61,011 bases of DNA from Actinomycetota bacterium (GCA_009886035.1 VFJN01000084.1:1-61011), one strand, 5' to 3'. Positions 26,575 to 44,901 are shown, counted from the first letter of the stretch. Numbers and translations are program-made. Notes: generated by a model not told the origin, from the letters alone.

Positions 26575-26627
26575 CCCTCCTCCCCCCGGCACCGAGATGG
26601 TCTCCCGGGCTGGCTAGCGTGGCCGGT

Positions 26628-27575
26628 ATGGCCGCGGTAGAGGTGCACGAGTTGACCGTGCGCTACGGCGACACCATCGCGGTGGATGGCATCAGCTTCG
26701 AAGCGCAGGCCGGGCAGATAACGGCCATCCTGGGACCAAACGGCGCCGGGAAAACCACCACCGTGGAGGTATTGGAAGGCTTCCGCCGACCCCTGGCTGG
26801 CCGAATCTCCGTGGCCGGCCTCGACCCCATCGCCGACCATGCCGCCCTCACCCGCCGCATGGGTGTGATGCTCCAAAGCGGTGGGGTGGGCCCGGGCGTT
26901 CGGGTGTTGGAAGCGCTACGCCACACCGCCGCCCTTTATGACAACAGCCTCGACCCCCGTACGTTGCTCGAACAGGTGGGCCTCAACGGCACGGAGCATC
27001 GAACGTGGCGACAGATCTCCGGCGGCGAACAACGTCGCTTGGCCCTGGCGCTGGCGCTGGTGGGGCGTCCGCAGGTGGCGTTCCTCGACGAGCCCGGTTC
27101 GGGAGTGGACCCGCAGGGGCGACTAGCCATTCGCGAGGTAGTGGCGGGCCTACGCGACGACGGCGTCACCGTGGTGCTCACCACCCACGATCTCGATGAG
27201 GTGGAGAAACTGGCCGACCATGTCGTGATCCTCGACGGCGGCCGGATTGTGGCGGCGGGGAGCCCGGCGCAGTTGATGACGGCCGGACAATCCGACGAGG
27301 TGCGCTTCGGTGCACCCCCGGGACTCGACGCCACCGCACTCGCTCAGCGAATCGGCGCCCCCGTGCACGAGGGGGCACCGGGCGAATACGTGGTGGCGGC
27401 CCCGGGCACCCCTGCCCTGGTCGCCGCGCTCACCGCCTGGCTGGCCGAGCACGACCTCCCCCTCGCCGACCTACGCGCCGGGCGCCAGCGCCTCGAAGAC
27501 GTGTTCCTTCGCCTCGTGGCCGAAGGGTCCTTCACCCGCCCGGAACCGCGGCGCCGGCGGCGAGGGCGGCGATGA
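26628..27575 (+). CDS. ABC transporter ATP-binding protein (Rv1458c-like)
   Basis: GPNGAGKT, ISGGE, FLDEP. Confidence 0.92.
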   Translation: MAAVEVHELTVRYGDTIAVDGISFEAQAGQITAILGPNGAGKTTTVEVLEGFRRPLAGRISVAGLDPIADHAALTRRMGVMLQSGGVGPGVRVLEALRHTAALYDNSLDPRTLLEQVGLNGTEHRTWRQISGGEQRRLALALALVGRPQVAFLDEPGSGVDPQGRLAIREVVAGLRDDGVTVVLTTHDLDEVEKLADHVVILDGGRIVAAGSPAQLMTAGQSDEVRFGAPPGLDATALAQRIGAPVHEGAPGEYVVAAPGTPALVAALTAWLAEHDLPLADLRAGRQRLEDVFLRLVAEGSFTRPEPRRRRRGRR

Positions 27576-28288
27576 AACCCCTCCTCGCCCACCTGCGCCT
27601 CGAACTCACCCTGATCGCCCGCAACGGCGAGTCGTTGCTCCTCACGCTGGGCATTCCCGTGCTGTTGCTCACGTTCTTCGCCACGGTGGATGTACTGCCG
27701 ATCGACGGCGAGCCGATCAACTTTCTGGCCCCGGGGGTACTGGCGCTGGCCGTGCTGTCGACCTCGCTGGTGAACCTGGCCATCAGTACGGGGTTCGAGC
27801 GCGAGTACGGCGTGCTCAAACGTCTGGGATCCACCCCGCTCGGCCGGCCGCGTCTCCTCGCCGCCAAGACGCTCGCCACCCTGGCGGTGGAGATCGTGCA
27901 GGTGGGAACCCTGTGGATCCTGGCCCTCGCCCTCGGATGGGACCCGAGCGTGAGGGTGGGATTCCTCGCCGCCATGGTCCTCGGCACCATCGGCTGCGCC
28001 GGTCTGGCGTTGTGTCTCGCCGGTTCCCTCAAAGCCCTCGTGACACTGGCCGCCGCTAACGGCCTTTACCTTCTGCTCCTGCTGCTGTCGGGCATGGTCA
28101 TCCCCATTGCCCAGCTCCCCGGTCCGATCCAAGGCATCGCCCGGGCGCTGCCGAGTGGCGCCATGACCGAGGCTGTCCGGGGATCGCTGAGCGCTGGAGG
28201 CTCCGTACCCGGCCGCGCGTGGGCGGCGCTGGTGATCTGGGCTGTCCTCAGCCCGCTCCTGGCTGTCCGTCTCTTTCGCTGGGAATAG
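27572..28288 (+). CDS. ABC-2 permease (Rv1457c-like)
   Basis: RNGESLLL, AISTGFEREYGVLKRLGSTPL, LFRWE. Confidence 0.88.
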   Translation: MKPLLAHLRLELTLIARNGESLLLTLGIPVLLLTFFATVDVLPIDGEPINFLAPGVLALAVLSTSLVNLAISTGFEREYGVLKRLGSTPLGRPRLLAAKTLATLAVEIVQVGTLWILALALGWDPSVRVGFLAAMVLGTIGCAGLALCLAGSLKALVTLAAANGLYLLLLLLSGMVIPIAQLPGPIQGIARALPSGAMTEAVRGSLSAGGSVPGRAWAALVIWAVLSPLLAVRLFRWE

Positions 28289-28305
28289 GCCCCCGGGCCC
28301 CGGGC

Positions 28306-29199
28306 CTACCGCTGAGGTTCGGGGACCGTCGGGGCGGGGTGGTCGTGGAAGGATCGCTCCACCTCGTCCCACGTGAGGACCTCGCGTTCGGTGGGCACAT
28401 AGCCGCGGTTGCTGGCCTGCTCATGACGCGCCGCCCACCGGAAGAAGATCACCACGATGATCACCCACAAGAAACTCCCGCCCACCAGTTTCATGATGGC
28501 GCCCGCCGCTTGCTGATCGGTTACCACCGAAATGCCCCACATCCGCTCGGGGATGTCGTAGGTCTTGTACACGGCACCGGTGGCAAACACCATCCAGGCC
28601 CCCGGCACGGTCGGCACGAGTGATTGTATGAAGAGGTAGATCATCTGGCCCGGCAAGGAGATCCGCACCTCGGGGAACGGGCCGCACACCGGCATCCAAA
28701 ACAGCAGGGCTGACGCCACCAGGGCCGTGTGTACCCCGTAATGAAACAGCCCGTTGCTGGCGGCGGTGTTGACCACGATCGGGGCGTGCGACCCCAGGGT
28801 GAGCAAGGCCATGATCGCCCCCGCCGGCACTGGCCGGGCCAGCCGGTGAACGATCGTGTTCACACGGCCATTGCCCACCACGAGGCGGGCCAGCCACTCG
28901 GGAATGGCCATCAACATGGCCGCCGCCACCAGGAGGGTGAGAACGAGATGTTGGCTCATGTGCACGAGAAAGAGATAGCGCTCGGCCACATCGTGGACGG
29001 GCCAATCCGATGCGGCCCACAGCAGAAGGATTGCCATGGCGAACCAACACCACTGCGACCGACTGATGGCGGGGGTCCCAGCCGGAACGATCTTGGGCCC
29101 GATCACCAGCCCGGCGTAGAGATAGAGCCCGGTGATTCCGACCACCAGCAGCCACACTTCGGGGTGGGGCACCCAGGCGAGGAAATCGACCGGTGGCAT
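28306..29199 (-). CDS. ctaG: caa3-type cytochrome c oxidase assembly factor CtaG
   Basis: HMSQHL, DQQAAGAIM. Confidence 0.85.
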   Translation of the reverse strand: MPPVDFLAWVPHPEVWLLVVGITGLYLYAGLVIGPKIVPAGTPAISRSQWCWFAMAILLLWAASDWPVHDVAERYLFLVHMSQHLVLTLLVAAAMLMAIPEWLARLVVGNGRVNTIVHRLARPVPAGAIMALLTLGSHAPIVVNTAASNGLFHYGVHTALVASALLFWMPVCGPFPEVRISLPGQMIYLFIQSLVPTVPGAWMVFATGAVYKTYDIPERMWGISVVTDQQAAGAIMKLVGGSFLWVIIVVIFFRWAARHEQASNRGYVPTEREVLTWDEVERSFHDHPAPTVPEPQR

Positions 29200-29206
29200 C
29201 AGTGAC

Positions 29207-29560
29207 TCACCGGAGAATCTGGAGAAAGTCGCTGGAGAAAAAGCCGAAGGTGGTCAACATGACGCCGAACACCACCACGGAAAGGAAAAGGCCGAAGAGG
29301 AACACCCGGCGGAAGATCGGATTGTCGTACTTCAGATGCATGAAGTACCCGGCCACTATGAGGAACTTTACGATCATCATCGGCACCAGAATCCCTACCA
29401 ACAACGTGGTCGTGGCTTCTTCGATGAAGTAAGTGCCCACCTCGAGGACGGTGATGAAGGCGAGGATCAGCGTGATCTTCACGTACTGCGCGTCCGACGG
29501 CAGATCGTGACCGTGGCCGACGGGGGCTTCGGCGGGTTCGTTGTCGGTGATGGTGGTCAT
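29207..29560 (-). CDS. Cytochrome c oxidase subunit IV (caa3/prokaryotic type)
   Basis: KFLIVAGYFMHLKYD. Confidence 0.85.
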   Translation of the reverse strand: MTTITDNEPAEAPVGHGHDLPSDAQYVKITLILAFITVLEVGTYFIEEATTTLLVGILVPMMIVKFLIVAGYFMHLKYDNPIFRRVFLFGLFLSVVVFGVMLTTFGFFSSDFLQILR

Positions 29561-29576
29561 GAGATCGTCCTCGGGT

Positions 29577-30185
29577 TCAAGGGATCAGGTAGACGACGGT
29601 GAAAATGATAATCCACACGATGTCGACAAAGTGCCAGTACAGGCCAATTGTTTCAACCGTTTCCGACCGCTCCGGGCCCAGATTGCCCCGAAACGACATC
29701 ACCAGCATGGACATCAACATCACGATCCCCACACTCACGTGCACGCCGTGGAAGGCGGTGAGCGTGTAAAACGCCGAACCAAAGATGTTGGTGGTGTAGC
29801 CCAAGCCCTCTCGGTAGAAGGTAGTGAACTCGTACACCTGCCCGCCGATGAACACCGCCCCCAGCATGGCGGTAGTGCCCAGCCAGATGCGGTTGAGACG
29901 CACATCCCCGCGCATGAGGGACGACACCGCCAGGACCATCGTGAGCGAACTCATCAGTAGCACGAAGGTGCTGACCGAGGTGAAGGGGATGTCGAATAAT
30001 TCCTCGGGCGTGGGGCCACCCACACTGCGGTGACGGAGCAACAGGTAGGTGGAGATGAGGCTGCCGAACAGCAGGCAATCCGACCCTAAGTACACCCACA
30101 TGGCCAGTTTCGTGTTCGAAATACCCGTCGAGGTGGCGTGACCGTGGTCGGCCGCTCCCGGAGTTCCCAGCGCCGTGTCAGTCAC
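29577..30185 (-). CDS. ctaE: Cytochrome c oxidase subunit III
   Basis: LLMSS, FYTLTAFHGVHV, GLYWHFVD. Confidence 0.92.
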   Translation of the reverse strand: MTDTALGTPGAADHGHATSTGISNTKLAMWVYLGSDCLLFGSLISTYLLLRHRSVGGPTPEELFDIPFTSVSTFVLLMSSLTMVLAVSSLMRGDVRLNRIWLGTTAMLGAVFIGGQVYEFTTFYREGLGYTTNIFGSAFYTLTAFHGVHVSVGIVMLMSMLVMSFRGNLGPERSETVETIGLYWHFVDIVWIIIFTVVYLIP

Positions 30186-32187
30186 CGACGGTCACCTCTT
30201 CGCGCTCGGCGGCGGGAGCCGCATGGTCGTCATCGCCGTCATCGTGGCCATTGCCGTCGTGGCCGTGCGGGAGTTGGTCCTCATCGTCGCTCGGCTCCAA
30301 CGCCCAGCCCACCATCGAGCCGAGCAGTACCAGGCCGCCCACGAAGGAAATCGCGAGGTTGAAAATGAGGCCATAGCCAATGAGGGGGAAGGCGGTCGCC
30401 ATGACGATCGGCCAGTAGGACGGCGCCGGCAGATGGGCCCGAGAGCCATCGCCGATCATGGCGATCTCTTCGGGCTCGTGCACCTTTACCACCCGACCGG
30501 TTTCGTCGGCCTGGTACTTGCGGTGCCACCAATCATCAAAGTGCACCACCACCGGATCGTCGTCGAAGTTGTGCTCCGGGGTAGGCGAGGGAACGCTCCA
30601 CTCCAGGCTGCGGCCATCCCAGGGATCCGGTCCGGGCGCCGACTGCAGGTGAGCCCCCCGCTTCGAGCGGGCAATGTTCACGAAGAAGATCAGAACGCTC
30701 AGCGCAATGATGAACGCCCCGATGGTGGAGACAAAGTTCCAGAAATTGAAGCCGTACCCATCGCGATACGTCTGGATCCGGCGGTTCATTCCCTGCAGGC
30801 CCAAGATGTGCATAGGGCCGAAGGTGAGGTTGAAGCCCACCAGCGTCAACCAAAAATGCACCTTGCCTAGTTTGTCGTCGAGGAAATAGCCGAACACCTT
30901 CGGCCACCAGAAGTAGAAGCCGCCGAGGAAGCCGAAGAGGGCCCCACCAAAGATCACATAGTGGAAGTGGGCCACGATGTAATACGTGTCGGTTTGTTGC
31001 GTATCAGCGGGGGCCACGGCGTGGGTTACCCCGGACAGACCACCGATGGTGAACATCGCTACCAGCCCGATCGAGAACAACAAGGGGGTGGTGAAGCTGA
31101 TCTTCCCGCCCCACAGCGTGGCCATCCAGTTCAAGATCTTTACCCCGGTGGGCACGGCAATGAACATGGTGGACACCGAGAACGCCGCTACCGAGATTGG
31201 ACCGAGACCGGAGGCGAACATGTGGTGAGCCCACACGCCCCAGCCCATGAACCCGATGGCGATACCCGAGAACACCATGAAGGGGTAACCGAAGATCGGC
31301 TTCCGGGAAAACACCGGGATGATCTCCGAGACGATGCCAAAGGCAGGAAGGATGAGGATGTAGACCTCGGGATGTCCGAAAATCCAGAAGAGGTGCTCCC
31401 AGAGCAGTGGGTCTGCCCCCTGCTGCACGTTGAAGAAGTTGGCGCCGAAGAGTCGGTCGAAGGTGAGCAGGAAAAGCGCCACGGAGATCACCGGCACGGC
31501 AAAGATGAGAAGCACCTGGGTGACCAGGCTCATCCAGGTGAACACCGGCAACTTCATCATCGTCATACCCGGGGCCCGCATGTTGAGCACGGTGACCACG
31601 AGGTTGACACCACCCACCAGCGAGGCGATGCCGGTGATCTGCAGGCCGATGGCGTAGAAGTCCATGCCGTGGCTGGGTGAGAAGATGACGCCGGTGTTGG
31701 GGGCGTAGGCAAACCATCCGCCGTCGGCGCCACCGCCGAGGAACCAGGAGGTGTTGAGGAAGATTCCGCCGAAAATGAACGTCCAGAAACTCAGGGCGTT
31801 GAGGCGGGGGAAGGCCACATCACGAGCCCCGATCTGCAGCGGCATGAGATAGTTCATGAAGGCGGCGCCCATCGGCATCACCACCAAGAAAATCATCGTG
31901 ACGCCGTGCATCGTGAACACCTGGTTGTACAGGGCCGCCGACAGAAGTTTCTGACCGGGCGCCGCCAATTGCGCCCGAATGGCTAGCGCTTCGATGCCAC
32001 CGATCACGAAGAAGAAGAGCGACGACGCTCCGTACATGATGCCGATCTTCTTGTGATCCACCGTGGACACCCAGGAGCGCCACCCAGTTTTGGCCCGGGG
32101 CCGGCTGAACACACCCATCGGGGCGCGAGCCACTCCGGCCCCCGGGGGAAGGGCAAGAATATCTGAGGACCGTTCAATAATCGCCAT
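30178..32187 (-). CDS. ctaD: Cytochrome c oxidase subunit I (A1 type, intact)
   Basis: TMHG, DVAFPRLN, GHPEVY, WAHH, GVK, AHFH, RR; two extra C-terminal helices. Confidence 0.97.
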   Translation of the reverse strand: MAIIERSSDILALPPGAGVARAPMGVFSRPRAKTGWRSWVSTVDHKKIGIMYGASSLFFFVIGGIEALAIRAQLAAPGQKLLSAALYNQVFTMHGVTMIFLVVMPMGAAFMNYLMPLQIGARDVAFPRLNALSFWTFIFGGIFLNTSWFLGGGADGGWFAYAPNTGVIFSPSHGMDFYAIGLQITGIASLVGGVNLVVTVLNMRAPGMTMMKLPVFTWMSLVTQVLLIFAVPVISVALFLLTFDRLFGANFFNVQQGADPLLWEHLFWIFGHPEVYILILPAFGIVSEIIPVFSRKPIFGYPFMVFSGIAIGFMGWGVWAHHMFASGLGPISVAAFSVSTMFIAVPTGVKILNWMATLWGGKISFTTPLLFSIGLVAMFTIGGLSGVTHAVAPADTQQTDTYYIVAHFHYVIFGGALFGFLGGFYFWWPKVFGYFLDDKLGKVHFWLTLVGFNLTFGPMHILGLQGMNRRIQTYRDGYGFNFWNFVSTIGAFIIALSVLIFFVNIARSKRGAHLQSAPGPDPWDGRSLEWSVPSPTPEHNFDDDPVVVHFDDWWHRKYQADETGRVVKVHEPEEIAMIGDGSRAHLPAPSYWPIVMATAFPLIGYGLIFNLAISFVGGLVLLGSMVGWALEPSDDEDQLPHGHDGNGHDDGDDDHAAPAAEREEVTVGD

Positions 32188-32194
32188 CGGGGGG

Positions 32195-33319
32195 TTACTC
32201 CAGCGTTCTCAGGTAGGCGACGAGGGCATCAATCTGTGACTCAGTAAGTTGAAGGTTCGGCATACCGCGCCCACCCTGGGGATACATCGGCTTCTCGGCG
32301 GGCGGATTGCGGAGCCACTTTTTGACGTCGGCAACATTGAAAATCTTACCGATCTCTTCGGTATCCACCTCCCCGTTTACGTTGGTATCAAGCCAAAGAT
32401 CGAAAATGGAGCCCGCAAATACACCACGACTGGCGAAGTGCGTGAGATTCGGAGCCGCTCCACTCACCTGGGCAGTGCCTTTGTAGATATCGGCATCCCC
32501 GCCCGGCCCGCTCGCGAGGTGACAGCCCGAGCAGGAGATGCGGAACTGCTCGAGGCCCTTCTTAGCCAATGCCTCCTGCGGCACGTCGGCACCGGTGAGT
32601 TGGTTGTCCTGCCATGTCTTGTAGTCGGCGGCGGCCAAGGCGACCACTCGCATTCGCATGTACGAATGGGAAAGACCACAGAACTCGCTGCACTGGCCTC
32701 GGTACACCCCGGGCTCGTCGGCTTCGATGGTGAGCGGCTGGGCCCGTCCGGGAACGGCGTCACGCTTGCCGTTGAGGGCGGGAATCCAGAAGGAGTGGAT
32801 CACGTCACGCGACTGGATGGTGAGAGCGATGGGTTGGCCGACCGGGATCACCAGATCATTTGCCGTGATGATGTCGTCTTCGCCGTCACCATCTACGTCG
32901 TAGCGATACTCCCACCACCACTGCTGACCAATCACCGTGACCTCTTGGGCATCGGCAGGCGTATCGGCGAGATCAAACAGGGTGAACACCGAGGCGGCCC
33001 CCACGCCGGCAAGCACCAGCGCCGGGAGAATGGTCCAGCCGATTTCGAGTTTGAAGTTGCCATGGTGCTGGACCGGAAGGCTGTCGTCGTCTTTACGCCG
33101 ACGGAACTTGATGGCCAGGAACAGCACGCCAAACTCCACCAGCACGAACACCACCGCCGCGATGGCGAAAACGGGCACGACCAGGTTCTGGATGGCGTCG
33201 GCCTCCGGCCCCTTGGGGTTCAGAGAGTCGAGCGGAGCATCGGTGGCACAGGCTCCGAGCGCCAGAAGGATCGGCACTCCCAGCAGCGCCTTCACGAGAC
33301 CAGAGTTACGTAGCTTCAT
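32195..33319 (-). CDS. ctaC: Cytochrome c oxidase subunit II with a fused cytochrome c
   Basis: Lipobox LGAC; DVIHSFW, CSEFCGLSHSYM (CuA); CSGCH...GMP. Confidence 0.93.
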   Translation of the reverse strand: MKLRNSGLVKALLGVPILLALGACATDAPLDSLNPKGPEADAIQNLVVPVFAIAAVVFVLVEFGVLFLAIKFRRRKDDDSLPVQHHGNFKLEIGWTILPALVLAGVGAASVFTLFDLADTPADAQEVTVIGQQWWWEYRYDVDGDGEDDIITANDLVIPVGQPIALTIQSRDVIHSFWIPALNGKRDAVPGRAQPLTIEADEPGVYRGQCSEFCGLSHSYMRMRVVALAAADYKTWQDNQLTGADVPQEALAKKGLEQFRISCSGCHLASGPGGDADIYKGTAQVSGAAPNLTHFASRGVFAGSIFDLWLDTNVNGEVDTEEIGKIFNVADVKKWLRNPPAEKPMYPQGGRGMPNLQLTESQIDALVAYLRTLE

Positions 33320-34164
33320 CAACCCTCTCCCTCCGGGACGGTGGTCGTCGTGCTCTTGTTGGTGCCCGGCGGAATAAAGGCCTTGTTGCCGGTCCCCGTG
33401 TCTTCGTTGGTGGACTCGTTGGGCGCTTCGGTCACCCGTTCGCCGCGCGACGCCGCCCCCACCCCCGCCACCCCGACACCGATTGCCATGATCACCAGCA
33501 CCCCAGCAATCAAGTTGGGCGACAACGTGGGGCGGCTGGCGAACAGGATGCCCACCAACAGGATGACCGCACCCAGGCCCATCGCCACCGCTACCGCCCC
33601 CAACACCGACGAGGTGAGCAGCAGCCGCGAGAACGCCCCCACCGCACCGCCCACGATGAGAATCCCCACGATCGGGATCTCCAGCGGAGCCATGAAACGG
33701 TTTCGGATCATCCGGTTGGCCGCCGGGTCCCCGGTGGCCCGATCGGACCAGTCGCGCACCATCCACTCGATGAGCACGGCCAGCAGGAGAAAGAGTCCGA
33801 CCACGAACATCACATTGCTCACCACCAGACCCAGCAGGATCAAACCAGCGCCAAAGGCTCCGACCGCGGGCTCAAAGGCTCGTCCGGCCGGAACGGCCTC
33901 GGCGGGGGCGGTCTCCATGCCGGCCAGTTCCGCCAATGCGTTGGACTCGGCGTCGCGGGTGGCCACCGCCACCAGACCCAGGAAGATGCCCAACAGACCA
34001 AAGGACACCAGCAGCGTGTAGCCGAGGTGATCCCCGACACCCCCGTTGTAGCCCGCCGTCACCGGGCCGAGGCCAGTGCCGCCGGTGGTCCACCCATAGA
34101 GAGCCGCCAGGAACAGCGAGAATGCGCCGATGCCGAGAAACGTCTTGGACCCAGTGGTGAACAT
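33319..34164 (-). CDS. CtaF-like membrane protein with a C-terminal extension
   Basis: N-terminal half resembles actinobacterial CtaF helix pattern; coupled to ctaC. Confidence 0.55.
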   Translation of the reverse strand: MFTTGSKTFLGIGAFSLFLAALYGWTTGGTGLGPVTAGYNGGVGDHLGYTLLVSFGLLGIFLGLVAVATRDAESNALAELAGMETAPAEAVPAGRAFEPAVGAFGAGLILLGLVVSNVMFVVGLFLLLAVLIEWMVRDWSDRATGDPAANRMIRNRFMAPLEIPIVGILIVGGAVGAFSRLLLTSSVLGAVAVAMGLGAVILLVGILFASRPTLSPNLIAGVLVIMAIGVGVAGVGAASRGERVTEAPNESTNEDTGTGNKAFIPPGTNKSTTTTVPEGEG

Positions 34165-34179
34165 TGCAGGAAACCCTCG

Positions 34180-34791
34180 CTACTTTGTGATGTAGATGCC
34201 GTACCAAATGACGACGTAGACGGCGATGATGGCGAACCAGTAGAGGGCCGCCGCGCTCATACCCTCGGCGTCACGACCAGTGAGCTGACCACCCAGGGCT
34301 TGGAACCCCATGACGGCAATAAACAGCATGCCCACCACCACCATCAACAGGTGGGTAGCGGTGACGATGTAGAGCAGCGTTCCGGCGGTGGAGGCGGTGA
34401 CCCCCATGGCCAACTGTTGGTAGAGGTAAACGGTGGAGTTGATGAAGGCGACGCCGAGGAGCAGCGTGAGCCCAAGAGCCACGTAGGCGTTGGGGCGATC
34501 ATCGTTGCGGAGGGAATAGACCGCCCAACTGATCGTCACCGCCGACATGGCCAGCGTGACCATTCCCATGCTTCCCGGCGTGAGCGGCAGCACAACGCCC
34601 TCGGGGAAGGTGGCATCGCCGGCGGACGCCAGCTGACCCCGCACCTGCAGGTAGACCGCCAATTCCGCCGCCACGAGGAGGACTGACGCCGCCGCACCGA
34701 ACGCGGCCCCCACGAAGAGCACGCGCGGCCGACGGGGCGGCGCGCTCGGGGCATTGATGAGGGGATTTTGGGCGACCGGAGCGGTGCTCAT
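34180..34791 (-). CDS. Degenerate subunit III paralog
   Basis: Five-TM layout parallel to CtaE (TLAMS, LYIVTATH, ALYW) with HxxH and YWHFVD eroded. Confidence 0.75.
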   Translation of the reverse strand: MSTAPVAQNPLINAPSAPPRRPRVLFVGAAFGAAASVLLVAAELAVYLQVRGQLASAGDATFPEGVVLPLTPGSMGMVTLAMSAVTISWAVYSLRNDDRPNAYVALGLTLLLGVAFINSTVYLYQQLAMGVTASTAGTLLYIVTATHLLMVVVGMLFIAVMGFQALGGQLTGRDAEGMSAAALYWFAIIAVYVVIWYGIYITK

Positions 34792-36425
34792 TGAGCGGAA
34801 GCCTCCTGGTGACGGGCGTCGTAGAGCGGCGCCTCCGACGTAATCTCGGGGAGGCTGGGGAAATTCCCCGCCGGCGGTGGAGAAGACGTAGCCCACTCGA
34901 GCGTATGGCCCGACCAGGGATCATCGCCCACCCCCTCGTGGCCCCGAATCGCCTGAACCACCAGGCCGAGGAACCCGAGGAACCCGAGGGCAAGGAACAA
35001 ACCCCCCGCCAGCGACACCGCGTTGAGGCCTTCGATCGCGGTGACGTTCTCGGCCACCGGACCCGGGATGTCGCCACCCTGGCCCAGTAGCCCGGAGACC
35101 AAATCGGGGAAGCTCCAGAGCACTGTGCCCACCAACAGGAGCGCCGCAACCCCGCGAGCGGCCCCCTCTCGCAAGCCGCGCCCGATCAATTTAGGGGCCC
35201 AGAACGTGATGCCCCCCAGAAGCGCAATGGCGAGCGACAACAGCACGTACGACGCCACCGCGGTGGTCCATGACGTGCCGTAGAGCGAAGTGGCGGGCCC
35301 GTCGACCAGCGTTTTGATCGGCTCGATGGCTTGCACCGCCCCCGCCAACAGCCCCACCAGCAGCATCAGCAGCGCCGACGCGGCAAAGAGCAACGGGCTG
35401 GCCAGGGTGACCTGTCCGTTCCGAAGGGTGACCGCCCACAATCCCACCAACGCCAGGACGGGGATCAGAATAAGGAAGGACACCGCCACCCAAGGCAGTT
35501 GGTAGAGCCACGGAGTGCTCGCGCCGACGAAACTGGGCAGGGCCCAGCCCCCGATGACCAAGGCGCCCACGGCGGCGATGGCGGTGCGGGCGAAGCGGTG
35601 CAGGTGATGTCGGGTGGCGCTAAGGACGGGCACCACCGTGGCGATGAACCCGAGCACCGGAAGAGCGAAGGCGTAGACCGCCGGCGGGCCGAAGACCCAG
35701 CTGATGCGGGCGTAAATGCTGGCGCTGTCTTCGCCGAGGTAGCGCACAAAGACGTAGGTGATCACCAACATGGCCACCAACACGGGCAGGGTGAGCAGCC
35801 AAACGGCGCCCGCTATCAAAACCGACCAGGAAAATAGAGGGGTGCGGGCCAGCGTCATACCCGGGGCCCGCAGGGTGACGACCGTGGTCATGATGCAGAT
35901 CCACGCCAGCAGTTCCGAGACGACCACCAACCCGAGGCCCGCCACAAAAAGCCGCACACCGTCGAGACTCGTGCCGAAGGGCCCACCGTCGATCGAATAG
36001 GCCCCGATGACGAGACCACTTCCCACGAGGTAACCCCACACGGCGGCGGCGGCGGCCCGGGGGAAGGCAATTGTGGAGGCCCCCACCTGGAGGGGGACGA
36101 TCACGGTGGCGAGGCCGATCGTGATCGGTAAGAGCACGAGGAAGGTGCCCCCGATCGCTCGATACGTGACGATCTGGGAGAACCAGTCGCTCGGACTATC
36201 GGTGAGTTTGGTGAGGCCAGCCAGGTCGAGGCGCATGGCGGCGACATAGAGCGACGCTCCCAGTACGAGCAGCAACTGCGCCAGGGCGGCCACGATCCAA
36301 AGCCGCCCCACCAGCTTGTGGTCGCCCGACGACAGTACGGCCACGAGCCCGGAGGGGGACGAGGCGGGGGTACTGGGCGCTGGGGCCACCAGTTCGGAGA
36401 CCGGAGCGTCTTCTGTGACGGTCAT
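34788..36425 (-). CDS. Cofactor-less heme-copper oxidase subunit I paralog
   Basis: Keeps DHK, PLQVGA..AFPR, RAPGMT, WVFGxPxVY, FWAPK, DPW.G..LEW; all six metal His replaced. Confidence 0.85.
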   Translation of the reverse strand: MTVTEDAPVSELVAPAPSTPASSPSGLVAVLSSGDHKLVGRLWIVAALAQLLLVLGASLYVAAMRLDLAGLTKLTDSPSDWFSQIVTYRAIGGTFLVLLPITIGLATVIVPLQVGASTIAFPRAAAAAVWGYLVGSGLVIGAYSIDGGPFGTSLDGVRLFVAGLGLVVVSELLAWICIMTTVVTLRAPGMTLARTPLFSWSVLIAGAVWLLTLPVLVAMLVITYVFVRYLGEDSASIYARISWVFGPPAVYAFALPVLGFIATVVPVLSATRHHLHRFARTAIAAVGALVIGGWALPSFVGASTPWLYQLPWVAVSFLILIPVLALVGLWAVTLRNGQVTLASPLLFAASALLMLLVGLLAGAVQAIEPIKTLVDGPATSLYGTSWTTAVASYVLLSLAIALLGGITFWAPKLIGRGLREGAARGVAALLLVGTVLWSFPDLVSGLLGQGGDIPGPVAENVTAIEGLNAVSLAGGLFLALGFLGFLGLVVQAIRGHEGVGDDPWSGHTLEWATSSPPPAGNFPSLPEITSEAPLYDARHQEASAQ

Positions 36426-36456
36426 GCAAGCACCTGGGAGAAGGGAACGATCCAGA

Positions 36457-36474
36457 TTGCGAATCTAGTCACAT
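36457..36474. promoter_or_regulatory. Rex/CRP-like operator over a -10 (TAGATT) upstream of the oxidase operon
   Basis: Minus strand ATGTGACTAGATTCGCAA = TGTGA-N6-TCGCA. Confidence 0.6.
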
Positions 36475-36511
36475 GGACCTCCGCCGTTCGAACTGTGCGA
36501 GCCATCGACCA

Positions 36512-37456
36512 TCACCATCCGAAACGCAGCAACTGATCCAGGGCCATGGCCACGAACAGAAGGGTGAGGTAGGTGATCGACCAAGTAAAGAGGCGCATCG
36601 CCGTGGAGCGGATCTCCGGCTCGCTCGATCCGCCCGCCGCCGGGCCGGATCGCTCCACCCGATTGGCCAGGGTGAGCAACCGCAGTGCGTGGTAGGTGAA
36701 AACCGCCCCCAGCACGACGGCCGAGCCGAGGTACACCAGCCCCATGTCGCCTATCGGGGTAAAAACGAGCGTGATGGCCCAGAGAAAAAGCGTGTAAGCC
36801 AAGATTCGCTCCGCCGTGCGCTTGAGATTCACCACCGACGGCAGCATTGGCACATCCGCCGCCGTGTAGTCGTCCCGGTAGCGGATGGCGAGGGCCCAGA
36901 AGTGCGGAGGCGTCCAGTAGAAGACGATGGCGAAGAGGACCACGGGCTCCCAGCCGAGACTGTCGGTTACCGCACTCCACCCGATGAGGACCGGAGCGGC
37001 GCCGGCCGCCCCCCCGATGACAATGTTGTGGGTCGAGGTGCGCTTCAGCCACAACGTGTAGACGAACACGTAGAAAAGACAGGCAGCCACGGCGAGCGCC
37101 GCACTCAGCAAGTTCACCGTGGCCCACAGGAACAAGAAGGCCAGGATCTCCAAGCCGATGGCGAAGATCAAGGCGGATCGGGGCGTCAGCGCCCCGGTGA
37201 CCAGCGGCCGGTTCTTGGTGCGCTCCATGAGGGAATCGATGTCGCGGTCGACGTACATGTTGATGGCGTTGGCGCCACCGGCCGCCAGGGTGCCCCCCAG
37301 CACGGTGCAGACCATCAACCACAGCGGCGGCATACCCTGCTCAGCCACCACCATCGTGGGGACGGTGGTCACCAGCAGCAGCTCGATGATCCTCGGCTTG
37401 GTGAGCGCCACGTAGGCGCGGATGCGCGCAGCAGGAGAGAGGACAACGGCGGACAC
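36512..37456 (-). CDS. ctaB: Protoheme IX farnesyltransferase (heme O synthase)
   Basis: LTKPRII, NMYVDRDID..MERTKNRP, WTPPHFWAL. Confidence 0.95.
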   Translation of the reverse strand: MSAVVLSPAARIRAYVALTKPRIIELLLVTTVPTMVVAEQGMPPLWLMVCTVLGGTLAAGGANAINMYVDRDIDSLMERTKNRPLVTGALTPRSALIFAIGLEILAFLFLWATVNLLSAALAVAACLFYVFVYTLWLKRTSTHNIVIGGAAGAAPVLIGWSAVTDSLGWEPVVLFAIVFYWTPPHFWALAIRYRDDYTAADVPMLPSVVNLKRTAERILAYTLFLWAITLVFTPIGDMGLVYLGSAVVLGAVFTYHALRLLTLANRVERSGPAAGGSSEPEIRSTAMRLFTWSITYLTLLFVAMALDQLLRFGW

Positions 37457-37549
37457 GACGGGTAAGGCTAGGGCTGCCCGTGGCCACGGGGCGAACCCTG
37501 AGAGCCGCTGGCTGGAGCCGCTGGGTCTGTGGTCCGTAGCCTGGGGATC

Positions 37550-38512
37550 GTGCTTCGTATCCGCCGGTACCTCGTCGCCGTCTGGCGGGGCCCGATCCGC
37601 CCCGAGACCTACCGAGTGATCACCGCCGCCGCGCTGGTGGCGGTATGCGCCATCATCGTGTCGGGGGCCGCCGTTCGGCTCACCGGCTCGGGAATGGGGT
37701 GTCCCACCTGGCCGTCGTGCGAGAGCGGTTCGCTCGTCCCCCGCGGGGCTACCGGCGGCCATGGATGGATTGAGTTCGTGAACCGCACCTTCACCGGCGC
37801 GGTGTCGGTGGCGGTGGCCATTGCGGTGCTCGGCTCTCATCGCCGCCAACCGCGCCGGAGAGACCTCATCTTCTGGTCGTGGGGCCTCGTGGCCGGGGTG
37901 CTGGCCCAGGCTCTGCTCGGCGGAATGGTCGTGCTTCTCCACGTCACCCCGATCGCCGTGGCGGGTCACTACCTCCTCTCGGCCGTCCTGGTGGCCAACG
38001 CGGTAATCCTCCACCACAAGGCCAGCGAGCCCGATGGCCCGCGGCGAGCCCGGGCCACCCCGAGCCTCATGGCGCGCTCGCGCGTGCTGGTGGGCCTCGC
38101 CGGGTTAGTCCTGCTGACCGGAACCGTCGTCACCGGCAGCGGGCCCCACAGCGGCGACACGGCCGCCGACCGCCTTCCCTTTATGGTTTCCACCGTTGCT
38201 CGGATACACAGCCTCACCGTCTGGGCCTTCCTGCTCACCGCGGTGATCGTGCTGCGCATGGTGACCGCCGGCGATGCGGCGGCGTCCACCGTTGGCCGAG
38301 GCCGCCTGCTCGTGGGCGCGATCCTGGCCCAGGGACTGCTCGGCTATGTGCAGTACTTTGCGGGGGTGCCGGAGATCCTCGTGGGAGCTCACGTGGCCGG
38401 CTCAGTGCTCGTCTGGGTAGCTGCTCTCCGCTTCTACCTCGCCCTTACCGAGCCGATCCCCACCATCACCCCACCGGCCCTGCCGCGCCCGCTGGCCCCG
38501 GTGGTGGGCTGA
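37550..38512 (+). CDS. ctaA: COX15/CtaA heme A synthase family (Rv1456c-like)
   Basis: [29 protein letters not shown], conserved His; TAGCCT-N7-GTG. Confidence 0.85.
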
Positions 38513-38817
38513 TGGTCGCTCCCACCCCGGCGCCCGCCCCCTCCGAGGTTTCCCAACCCGTTGATGACACCCGCACCAAACCCGACCAACCGTGGATCGT
38601 GCTGGTGTGGAACGACCCCATCAACCTGATGTCCTACGTCGCCTTCGTGTTGCAAAAGTTGTTCGGCTACTCGAGGGAGAAAGCCGACGGCCTCATGCTC
38701 CAAGTCCACCATGAGGGCAGAGCGGTGGTGGCCAACGGTCCCCGGGAAACATGCGAACTCCACGTGTTCCGGCTCCATGAACACGGCCTGTGGGCCACCA
38801 TGCAGCACGACCTGTGA
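38512..38817 (+). CDS. clpS: ATP-dependent Clp protease adaptor ClpS
   Basis: [26 protein letters not shown]. Confidence 0.93.
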
Positions 38818-42734: not shown

Positions 42735-42760
42735 TCGGCGAAGCGTCGGGATGGTGATCT

Positions 42761-42789
42761 TCTCACCTCCTTCACAGGAAACTCACAGG
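42761..42789 (+). promoter_or_regulatory. PhoP/MprA-like direct repeats (11-bp period)
   Basis: TCTCACC/TCACAGG/TCACAGG at 42761/42772/42783. Confidence 0.7.
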
Positions 42790-42810
42790 GATTGGCGCGA
42801 TGCTTCCGCA

Positions 42811-43494
42811 GTGGCCCCGATCCGAGTGTTGCTCGTCGACGACGAAGACAACCTTCGTTCGATGCTCGAGGCCGCCTTGAGCCACTCCGGCTTCGACGTG
42901 CACCCGGTGACCAACGGCCGAGCCGCGCTGGAGGCGGTGCCCATCGTGCAGCCCGACCTCATCGTCCTCGACGTGATGCTGCCGGACCTCGACGGATTCG
43001 ACGTGTGCAAGCGTCTGCGGAGCTCCGGCGACCGAACACCGATCCTCTTTCTCACCGCTCGCGATGCCACCGAGGATCGTGTGCACGGGCTCACCCTCGG
43101 GGGCGACGACTACCTCATCAAGCCCTTCAGCCTCGATGAACTGGTAGCCCGGATCACCGCAGTGCTGCGGCGCAGCGGGCTCGACCGCACCAGTGAGGAT
43201 CTCCGCTGCGCCGATCTGGAGATGGACGACGAAGCCCACCTCGTGCTGCGGGCTGGCCGCGAGGTGCAACTCTCCCCCACCGAGTTCAACCTGCTGCGTT
43301 ACCTGCTCGTCAACCAGGGACGAGTGGTGTCCAAGGCCCAGATCCTGGACCACGTATGGGACTACGACTTCGGAGGCGACGGGGGTGTGGTGGAGACCTA
43401 CATCGGCTACCTCCGCCGAAAGCTCGACACCTCCGAGCCCCATCTCATCCAAACGATCCGCGGCGTGGGCTACACGCTGCGGGTGACGCAATAG
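42811..43494 (+). CDS. OmpR/PhoB-family response regulator (PhoP/TcrX-like)
   Basis: VDDE, LDVMLP, KPF, VETYIGYLRRK, TIRGVGY. Confidence 0.95.
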   Translation: MAPIRVLLVDDEDNLRSMLEAALSHSGFDVHPVTNGRAALEAVPIVQPDLIVLDVMLPDLDGFDVCKRLRSSGDRTPILFLTARDATEDRVHGLTLGGDDYLIKPFSLDELVARITAVLRRSGLDRTSEDLRCADLEMDDEAHLVLRAGREVQLSPTEFNLLRYLLVNQGRVVSKAQILDHVWDYDFGGDGGVVETYIGYLRRKLDTSEPHLIQTIRGVGYTLRVTQ

Positions 43495-43500
43495 CCCACC

Positions 43501-44901
43501 ATGTCCCTTCGGATTCGGCTGGTCCTATCGGCGGTGCTCATCGCGCTCGTACTGGCGATAGCGGCAGTCACCATCGCCCGCACCACCGAAAACCAATTGA
43601 TGGGACAGGTCGATACGCAGTTACGGGGGGCCAGTTCCCGAACCGGCGCTCCTCCCCGGCGGGCCGACCCAAGCGCCGATAACCCCGACCGGTTGAGTTC
43701 CCTCTACGTGGGGTTCGTAGATGACGACGGAGTTCTTCGCACCGCATTCACCCCCAACCTGGCGACCGACGACGGCCCCATCCCGGTGCTGAACGCCACC
43801 GACCTCACCGCCATGAGGGACGGGGAGCTCATCACCGTTCCCAGCCGCCAGTCGACGGTGGAGTACCGGGCGCTCGCTCGCAATGGCCCCAACGGCACCA
43901 CGATTATTTTAGCCCTGCCGCTCGATGGTGTGGCCGAAGCGGTGAACCAGCTCATCGTGGTGGAACGAATGGCGGGCCTGGCAATCATACTGGTCCTGGC
44001 GCTCGTCACCACATGGGTGATCCGACTGGGCGTACGCCCGGTGCAGCGAATGACCGAAACCGCCAGTGCCATCGCAGCGGGCGACCTGAGCCAACGCGTT
44101 CCCGAGGGAAGCCCCGGCTCCGAGGCCGGCGAACTCGGCATCGCCCTCAACGCAATGCTCGGCCGCATCGAGGAAGCCTTTGAGCAGCGCCGCGCCTCCG
44201 AGGACCGGTTGCGGCAGTTCATAGCCGACGCGTCACATGAGTTGCGTACCCCCGTCACCACCATCCGCGGCTATGCCGAGCTCTACCGAACCGGAGGGCT
44301 GCCACAAGCCACCGACGTCGACGAGGCCATGCGCCGCACTGAGCAAGAGGCCATTCGCATGGGCTCCCTGGTGGATGACCTCCTCCATCTTGCCCGCCTC
44401 GACCAGGGTCGGCCCCTCGGCCGCCAACCGGTGGAGTTGAGCCAACTCGCCCACGACGTGGTGAACGACGCTCTGGCCGTGCATCCGAGCCGATCAATCA
44501 CGGTCATCGCCCCCGATCCGGTGACGGTGACCGGCGACGATGCTCGGCTCCGACAAGTGGTCTCTAACCTGCTCACCAACGCCGTCCTGCACGCCCCCGA
44601 TGCCACTATCGAGGTGCGGATCCAGGCCACCCCCGACGGCGCCCAGATCGAGGTGGCCGACGCCGGTCCCGGCCTGTCCGACGTCGATGCGGCTCGGGTC
44701 TTCGAACGCTTCTACCGGGCCGATGCATCGCGCGTCCGGCAGCAAGGCGGCAGCGGCCTGGGCCTTGCCATCGTGGAAGCCACCGTGCGCGCCCACGGTG
44801 GTGTCGTGTCGCTCACCACGGCACTCGGCCAGGGCACCACTGTTCGGGTGGACCTACCCCACCAGCCCCCACTGGACCACAATCCTCCGGTCGCCGACTA
44901 G
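43501..44901 (+). CDS. HAMP sensor histidine kinase
   Basis: Two TMs, ADASHELRTP, N-box, DAGPG, GSGLGL. Confidence 0.95.
   Translation: MSLRIRLVLSAVLIALVLAIAAVTIARTTENQLMGQVDTQLRGASSRTGAPPRRADPSADNPDRLSSLYVGFVDDDGVLRTAFTPNLATDDGPIPVLNATDLTAMRDGELITVPSRQSTVEYRALARNGPNGTTIILALPLDGVAEAVNQLIVVERMAGLAIILVLALVTTWVIRLGVRPVQRMTETASAIAAGDLSQRVPEGSPGSEAGELGIALNAMLGRIEEAFEQRRASEDRLRQFIADASHELRTPVTTIRGYAELYRTGGLPQATDVDEAMRRTEQEAIRMGSLVDDLLHLARLDQGRPLGRQPVELSQLAHDVVNDALAVHPSRSITVIAPDPVTVTGDDARLRQVVSNLLTNAVLHAPDATIEVRIQATPDGAQIEVADAGPGLSDVDAARVFERFYRADASRVRQQGGSGLGLAIVEATVRAHGGVVSLTTALGQGTTVRVDLPHQPPLDHNPPVAD

Follow-up and report, generated by a model that had tools for sequence, protein, structure and literature searches.

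Conserved paralogs of oxidase subunits I, III and IV, predicted to bind no cofactor, within the caa3 oxidase operon of an Acidimicrobiia order

We analysed a 61,011-nt stretch of DNA from an Actinomycetota bacterium (GCA_009886035.1 VFJN01000084.1:1-61011; this whole stretch is referred to as the window) and describe here three genes, named psI, psIII and p281, which lie inside a caa3-type cytochrome c oxidase operon. On the minus strand the gene order is ctaB-psI-psIII-p281-ctaC-ctaD-ctaE, followed further on by ctaG. The first gene of the module, psI (34788..36425, minus strand), codes for a 545-amino-acid (aa) paralog of the COX1 family, assigned by Pfam, BLASTP, NCBIfam and a table of aligned columns, the second, psIII (34180..34791, minus strand), for a 203-aa COX3-family paralog, assigned by Pfam and by BLASTP against CtaE, and the third, p281 (33319..34164, minus strand), for a 281-aa membrane protein placed by profile and hhalign comparisons. 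The regular oxidase genes follow on the same strand: ctaC (32195..33319) encodes subunit II with a fused cytochrome c domain (Pfam COX2 and cytochrome c), ctaD (30178..32187) an intact subunit I of 669 aa with all ligands present (Pfam, NCBIfam, column table), and ctaE (29577..30185) subunit III (Pfam). The genes are tightly packed, with the TGA of psI and the ATG of psIII sharing an ATGA overlap, 15 nt between the psIII stop and the p281 start, a TGATG overlap joining p281 to ctaC, 7 nt between ctaC and ctaD, and ctaE overlapping the end of ctaD, while psI lies 86 nt downstream of ctaB. The only subunit II gene in the operon is ctaC. Three COX1 genes are present in the genome (ctaD, psI and that of a second oxidase on another contig) but just two for subunit II, which leaves psI without a dedicated subunit II; a free-standing ctaF was not found in the genome either.

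That psI belongs to the COX1 family is clear from its match to the Pfam COX1 profile (PF00115; 168.6 bits, E 2.8e-49), which covers positions 3-435 of 436 and compares with 519.6 bits for CtaD. The two proteins align end to end in BLASTP with 27% identity over 557 columns (E 4e-49), and against the NCBIfam CtaD equivalog TIGR02891 psI reaches 226.9 bits, below the cut-off of 670.75, versus 691.7 bits for CtaD. In the aligned columns the six histidine ligand positions hold R, P, L, P, V and S, and none of the six is kept in any of the 20 rows of the genus. Arginine occupies the first heme His position in all 20 of these rows, and the active-site Tyr position is likewise retained in all 20. The D-channel Asp and Asn are T and A, the channel Glu is A, the K-channel Lys is L, and the Arg pair for the heme propionates is replaced by G and D. 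An earlier note, made from the window alone, had read these replacements as motif changes (TMHG to TYRA, GHPEVY to GPPAVY, WAHH to WALP, AHFH to AVAS, RDVAFPRLN to STIAFPRAA, together with loss of the K-channel Lys and of the Arg pair) in a frame without frameshift that runs over an ATGA overlap into a subunit III paralog; all of them can be seen in the alignment and the column table, where NRR is changed to GGD, the frame from 34788 to 36425 holds zero internal stops, and the junction reads as described.

The same note had proposed that catalysis was lost selectively while the scaffold was retained, which agrees with our comparison of 39 psI and 16 CtaD sequences: the ligands are gone, and 44 positions carry the same conserved residue in both sets, including the structural motifs DHK, PLQxGA, RAPGM, FWAPK and DPWxGxTLEW. 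On the other side of the balance, 122 of the 188 CtaD-invariant positions are not kept in psI. A further 17 positions are conserved in psI alone, mostly G, A, L or P with few polar residues (R194, T508, S530, D536), and since none of the 17 lies in a predicted helix, the polar ones being in loops or in the C-terminal tail, no new polar site has arisen in the membrane. With the membrane sides of the loops presumably those of the established A-family subunit I topology, the ratio of conservation in psI to that in CtaD is 0.84 in cytoplasmic loops, 0.71 in helices and 0.62 in outer loops, and the loop between helices IX and X falls to 0.49 in psI versus 0.90 in CtaD. In our reading, selection has preserved the fold together with the cytoplasmic face, for contacts, and has released the metal sites and the outer face on which subunit II sits.

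The product of psIII scores 58.2 bits against Pfam COX3 (PF00510), above the cut-off of 23.8 and compared with 67.7 bits for CtaE, with which it shares 31% identity over 172 aa and the short five-helix form; it is thus a COX3-family member by both score and architecture, with altered YWHFVD and VYEF motifs. The p281 protein matches no Pfam family, and its own family is large (1171 cluster representatives at E <=1e-3, 255 at 1e-30), the named members all being called hypothetical. It had been described as CtaF-like, a description that appears to fit its N-terminal half: residues 6-137 give a full-length hhalign match to four actinobacterial CtaF proteins (60.5%, E 8.4e-5). Cyt_c_ox_IV (PF12270) does not match the p281 of the window, matches weakly in five of 19 orthologs (best E 5e-4), and finds the longer relative P0167 with 31.1 bits, above the cut-off of 26.9. 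The C-terminal half is something else, namely the membrane anchor of a cupredoxin protein, as residues 144-238 match the three-helix anchor of a protein that we call X (hhalign probability 97.7%, E 1.6e-12). In all five sister-order loci fetched, X is encoded after ctaG in the caa3 operon; in all three cases tested it ends in a plastocyanin/azurin-type copper domain, and it could serve the oxidase as a dedicated, membrane-bound electron donor. In these sister-order loci (L078-L082) the order is ctaC-ctaD-ctaE-ctaG-X, with X of about 250 aa and three helices; the genome of the window has no X after ctaG.

Longer members of the p281 family link the two halves to copper. Five of eight longer relatives carry a C-terminal cupredoxin, the three that were read (P0126, P0167, P0186) show the His, Cys, His, Met pattern, and the Atlas contains a cluster that combines a cupredoxin with subunit IV, the look-up having been made with a stored homolog 81% identical to the p281 of the window. 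CtaF-cupredoxin fusions of this kind also occur in Chloroflexota. The latter has no cupredoxin domain and keeps only the anchor, followed by a tail rich in Thr and Glu, with the polar residues D146, N150, R154, E162, S179 and R180 invariant in the anchor half. The CtaF-like half, the match to the anchor of X and the cupredoxin-bearing relatives together point to a fusion origin, and the p281 family is, as judged from these comparisons, evidently a subunit IV fused to an anchored blue-copper protein whose copper domain has been deleted in the window.

The module is widespread among relatives. Of 24 genomes belonging to the same genus, 19 have an intact psI ortholog (52-87% identity, no stops); four genomes without a psI match are 69-82% complete, and in one further assembly psI is in pieces, as are all genes of that locus. 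One genome of the genus (G013) has two full-length psI copies on contigs C134 and C286, both 62% identical to that of the window; its contamination is 5%, and the two copies may represent two strains in one bin rather than a duplication. All nine further loci examined in the same order carry the module, and the order ctaB-psI-psIII-p281-ctaC-ctaD-ctaE recurs in other families of the order. Since the alignment of all 19 p281 sequences was too variable for a scan of the genome collection, a narrower alignment was used, which found 80 named Acidimicrobiia loci (species representatives), a set biased to close relatives and without the copper-keeping forms; psI is present in 78 of these and psI, psIII, p281, ctaC and ctaB together in 69. 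The carriers are labelled Acidimicrobiia, Acidimicrobiales or Microthrixaceae and include the cultured Actinospongicola halichondriae and a metagenome-assembled genome (MAG) labelled Candidatus Microthrix parvicella (p281 81%), a filamentous bacterium of activated sludge. Strain Hal317 of A. halichondriae (L137) retains the low-spin His pair, and Candidatus Microthrix would stand for the state without ligands. Moreover, psI adjoins ctaB in every locus that reaches that far, as it does in 72 of the 78 psI-bearing named loci, and even where ctaB is inverted (L025, L026) psI still adjoins it and heads psI-psIII-p281-ctaC-ctaD-ctaE.

For the limits of this distribution the p281 profile served as marker, a class-wide psI profile failing to separate psI from real oxidases (at about 380 bits). 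Full-length matches were obtained in 41 of 48 high-quality genomes of the order and none in the sampled genomes of three families of the same order (0/5, 0/1, 0/1). In three genomes of the order without p281 the best COX1 locus is of the ox2 type and no caa3 operon was found there, the rest of these genomes being unsearched. Among other orders of the class, 34 of 113 genomes gave a weak match only, which covers the anchor half alone in 33 and positions 69-143 in one (G049); in the five of the 34 whose locus was fetched the match is protein X, and at eleven loci of other orders the best psI-profile matches are genuine oxidases. The survey of synteny and histidine loss proposed in the earlier note reveals conservation across an order and tight packing with the caa3 genes, and the module is evidently old, vertically inherited and genomically tied to caa3.

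The three genes also appear to be under purifying selection. Ratios of nonsynonymous to synonymous substitution rates (dN/dS), calculated by the Nei-Gojobori method against the two closest genomes (G024/G001), are 0.23/0.17 for psI, 0.10/0.13 for psIII and 0.25/0.22 for p281, compared with 0.14/0.15 for ctaC, 0.14/0.17 for ctaB, 0.09/0.07 for ctaD and 0.10/0.05 for ctaE. Genus-wide medians are higher than these two-genome values and are not leaned on, because synonymous sites are expected to be near saturation at this G+C content. Absent or frameshifted orthologs with dN/dS near 1, which the earlier note had named as signs of decay, are thus not what we observed, psI being intact in 19 of 24 genomes at 0.17-0.23. 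We considered a pseudogene and rejected it, given the lack of stops and frameshifts across the order, dN/dS of 0.10-0.25 and the conservation of the start/stop codon overlaps. In RNA libraries from two studies there are contigs that match, at 95% identity or above, pieces of psI, the psI/psIII junction and p281 as well as neighbouring cta genes, and that leave parts of the genes uncovered; as DNA carry-over is possible, they give weak support for transcription. All four RNA-library runs mapped to the window have C in place of T at plus-strand position 34791; on the gene strand psIII then starts with GTG rather than ATG, while the final sense codon of psI undergoes a synonymous change, so that overlap and start codon are both preserved in the strains sampled. 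A promoter and terminator scan of 28000-38600 gave nothing above shuffled sequences. Taken together, psI, psIII and p281 are evidently full-length relatives by duplication of oxidase subunits I, III and IV that selection maintains.

How the module lost its cofactor sites can be followed in its relatives. The CuB His triad is absent from all 39 psI orthologs of the order, of which four (L032, L036, L037, L075) keep the low-spin His pair plus the high-spin His, five the low-spin pair only, one a single His and 29 none. A similar picture emerges from the named loci, where, after 13 partial sequences were dropped from the count, 65 full-length psI proteins show no heme His in 36, one in 16 and the pair in 13. 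The type-1 copper motif of the p281 partner survives only in L032, L075, L037 and L039, in all four of which psI keeps heme His. In L072, L074 and L077 p281 (338-375 aa) still has the C-terminal domain with its Cys, His and Met copper ligands replaced, so that these proteins appear to be intermediates between the copper-keeping forms and the domain-deleted forms, to which the genus of the window belongs.

The form keeping both hemes is itself a sizeable subfamily. Relatives of the L037 psI number 305 proteins at E <=1e-60, and among the 118 full-length sequences of the best 120 of these 305 (P0393-P0512), all 118 have the low-spin His pair and an Arg at the position of the first CuB His, 98 the high-spin His and 117 an Asp or Glu at the channel Glu position, with the His-His pair present in none. 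The resulting column pattern is H-R-[DE]-[YF]-A-G-H-H, the three CuB positions in early-branching relatives being Arg, Ala and Gly, and this looks like a conserved active site without CuB. In a maximum-likelihood tree of 44 rows, in which long-branch effects on the exact branching order are possible, a branch with 100/100 support sets the 30 psI sequences apart, and those with heme His attach closest to the real oxidases. The low-spin His pair has been lost repeatedly, in separate branches. One alignment row comes from a genome flagged unpublished (G004, locus L018), and no claim depends on it. The comparison indicates that the module probably descends from a paralogous complex that lacked the CuB His triad and had both hemes together with a type-1 copper domain on subunit IV, and that the cofactor sites were evidently lost stepwise during the diversification of one Acidimicrobiia order. 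The earlier picture of a plain dead duplicate of ctaD-E-F consequently gives way to the apparent end of a series, leading from two hemes and blue copper through low-spin heme His only to nothing in this genus.

What do these proteins do? To all appearances they are dead as an oxidase, without sites for heme a, heme a3, CuB and blue copper, and because the metal sites and the proton-channel residues are gone, neither O2 reduction nor proton pumping is to be expected of them. We favour, at a probability of roughly 0.45, the explanation that psI, psIII and p281 have been retained to serve the active caa3 oxidase as a structural partner without catalysis. The three proteins would be made from one transcript with CtaC, CtaD and CtaE and would insert into the membrane as a core of 12 + 5 + about 7 helices, which could form a pseudo-protomer beside the active enzyme or an adaptor towards a bc complex, with selection acting mainly on the fold, the cytoplasmic face and the subunit contacts. 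A bc complex is a possible further partner because a cytochrome b gene lies elsewhere in the genome and an NrfD-family gene was not found in it (93% complete).

Several observations weigh against this explanation. psI evolves about 2-2.5 times faster than CtaD, and its terminal branches are 3-10 times as long as those of CtaD in the same genomes. In sister orders all five caa3 operons lack the module, so an oxidase as such may be able to do without it. The module neighbours ctaB just as constantly as it does ctaC, which fits a role in biogenesis equally well, and the comparison of the two membrane faces takes its helix limits from hydropathy and its sides from the established A-family topology. 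In real enzymes the outer-face loops carry the subunit II domain; with these loops the least conserved and no subunit II paralog at hand, contact with the active enzyme must differ from that of a simple second protomer.

A bolder proposal, tentative and in our estimate possible rather than probable, gives the structural partner a past of its own. The founding form would have been a CuB-less enzyme with both hemes, and with the conserved Arg and acidic residue at the CuB-His1 and channel Glu positions, taking its electrons through the blue copper of subunit IV and not through subunit II; across most of the order it would have lost hemes and copper, and the emptied shell would now be an obligatory structural half of a hetero-oligomeric caa3, and the lineage an undescribed branch of the heme-copper family.

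Somewhat unlikely, yet the most serious competitor, is that the dead core mimics apo-subunit I and works with CtaB, CtaA or other assembly factors outside the mature oxidase; it might stabilise CtaB, for instance, or keep partners bound to its conserved cytoplasmic face. The constant neighbourhood of psI and ctaB, maintained even across the inversions in L025 and L026, would follow naturally, as would the fact that psI is best preserved in the cytoplasmic motifs common to it and CtaD and that heme ligands persist in early-branching forms; a ligand-less COX1-like gene of Acetobacter, likewise clustered with ctaB, has been suggested to stabilise CtaB, according to the part of the source available (PMC10715153). 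That role is itself merely a suggestion, however, and translational coupling runs toward ctaC, with an 86-nt gap on the side of ctaB. Furthermore, a chaperone has no obvious need for subunit III and IV paralogs of its own, and the sister orders have caa3 operons without the module.

A new non-redox function, in which the shell is re-used as a channel, sensor or lipid-binding platform and is merely co-regulated with the oxidase, strikes us as improbable. It would account for purifying selection despite the lack of any cofactor site, for the invariant polar residues that remain in the p281 anchor half after loss of the copper domain and for the Arg at the first heme His in all 20 genus rows, but the 17 positions conserved only in psI all lie outside the predicted helices, both known sets of proton-channel residues are gone, and the strict genomic association with ctaCDE favours a common complex. 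Far less probable still is a residual redox enzyme that holds heme or copper by other ligands and retains some electron-transfer or gas-binding activity: the active-site Tyr, kept throughout the genus, and the existence of relatives with heme His speak for it, against the replacement of all six His, the loss of the heme-propionate Arg pair, the repeated loss of the low-spin pair in separate branches and the missing electron-entry domain, there being neither a subunit II paralog nor a copper domain. Finally, slowly declining pseudogenes kept by operon polarity alone, to which the fast evolution relative to CtaD and the progressive loss of cofactor sites might be attributed, are contradicted by the intact orthologs, dN/dS values and conserved codon overlaps described above, as well as by the restriction of broken copies to just two assemblies in which all genes of the locus are broken, and we regard them as negligible.

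If the dead core is indeed built into caa3, bacteria would offer a clear example of a terminal oxidase with a pseudo-enzyme protomer, and the non-catalytic contribution of the subunit I/III/IV scaffold would become directly testable. The graded natural variants, with two hemes and blue copper, one heme or nothing, offer a set for studying cofactor loss and assembly, and experiments are feasible because the group includes a cultured isolate besides MAGs labelled Candidatus Microthrix parvicella. There is also a consequence for annotation: genes of the psI and p281 type go under the names 'cbb3-type cytochrome c oxidase subunit I' and 'hypothetical protein', and annotation as oxidase subunit I inflates terminal-oxidase counts in metagenome surveys.

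The surroundings of the module contain further oxidase genes, all assigned by Pfam: ctaG for a caa3-type assembly factor (28306..29199, minus strand), ctaB for heme O synthase (36512..~37450, minus strand, start codon not fixed) and, divergent from ctaB, ctaA for heme A synthase (37529..38512, plus strand). An ABC-2 transporter pair (26622-28288, plus strand) directly flanks ctaG, and the other neighbours in the window are ordinary, among them ClpS (38500-38817, plus strand) and an OmpR-type response regulator with a HAMP histidine kinase (42751-44901, plus strand). The C-terminal ~125 residues of CtaD (30178-30560, minus strand) form a predicted two-helix extension with an acidic, His-rich tail, which is also present in CtaD of a sister order (L079). 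It resembles the second half of CtaF weakly (Cyt_c_ox_IV, 22.8-26.4 bits, just below the cut-off), and BLASTP of p281 against it was not significant (E 0.2). At the second A-type oxidase locus of the genome (L002, G000 contig C77:14330-15835), subunit I is contained in an 848-aa open frame that may represent a fusion with subunit III, and a subunit II gene is located upstream.

In the literature on Acidimicrobiia we found no description of the module (supplements not covered). Likewise, a three-subunit module inside a working caa3 operon and its conservation across an order were not found in the sources as far as accessible, including PMC11214002, PMC4986455, PMC4013037 and PMC9145763, nor were a subunit IV-cupredoxin fusion and a graded loss from a CuB-less form with both hemes, families that the supplementary data of PMC11214002 might list. 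The earlier note knew of no functional description of such a module; in this respect the principle of a ligand-less subunit I homolog beside ctaB appears to be already in print for Acetobacter, whose 'deranged COX1-like protein' is reported, in the accessible part of PMC10715153 (citing Matsutani 2014), to lack metal-binding residues, to be retained beside ctaB and to have a suggested structural role. Like that gene, psI is ligand-less, retained and adjacent to ctaB, a likeness at the level of description. The Acetobacter gene is portrayed there as a relic in bacteria without a working cytochrome c oxidase, whereas psI, an old paralog whose conservation spans an order, stands beside intact ctaCDE together with paralogs of subunits III and IV. 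Departures from the oxidase pattern at the active site are shared with members of the nitric oxide reductase (NOR) type, for which the accessible text of PMC11214002 gives three His at the second-metal site (for FeB) in cNOR and qNOR and an Asp replacing one of them in gNOR; the early-branching psI relatives differ in having Arg, Ala and Gly at the CuB positions, and the psI of the window lacks any ligand.

With the membrane-anchored cupredoxin of the plastocyanin/azurin family that follows ctaG, and with the CtaF-cupredoxin fusions, p281 shares the anchor, having lost the copper domain. The earlier note drew an analogy with ActF, which in alternative complex III is a paralog of ActC: a copy without a functional site acts as a structural twin in a respiratory complex. 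ActF belongs to a different protein family, and membership of psI in a complex is putative. The nearest known system is the actinobacterial aa3 oxidase with CtaD, CtaE and CtaF (CIII2CIV2 supercomplexes, e.g., 6adq, 7rh5, 6hwh, 7q21), whose subunit I chains score 193-156 bits with psI compared with 133 bits or less for other A-type chains. The module has the same set of subunits I, III and IV, the cytoplasmic motifs and the C-terminal tail in common with this enzyme, and is set apart from it by the loss of heme and copper ligands and proton-channel residues, the missing subunit II partner and the additional three-helix anchor on its subunit IV homolog p281.

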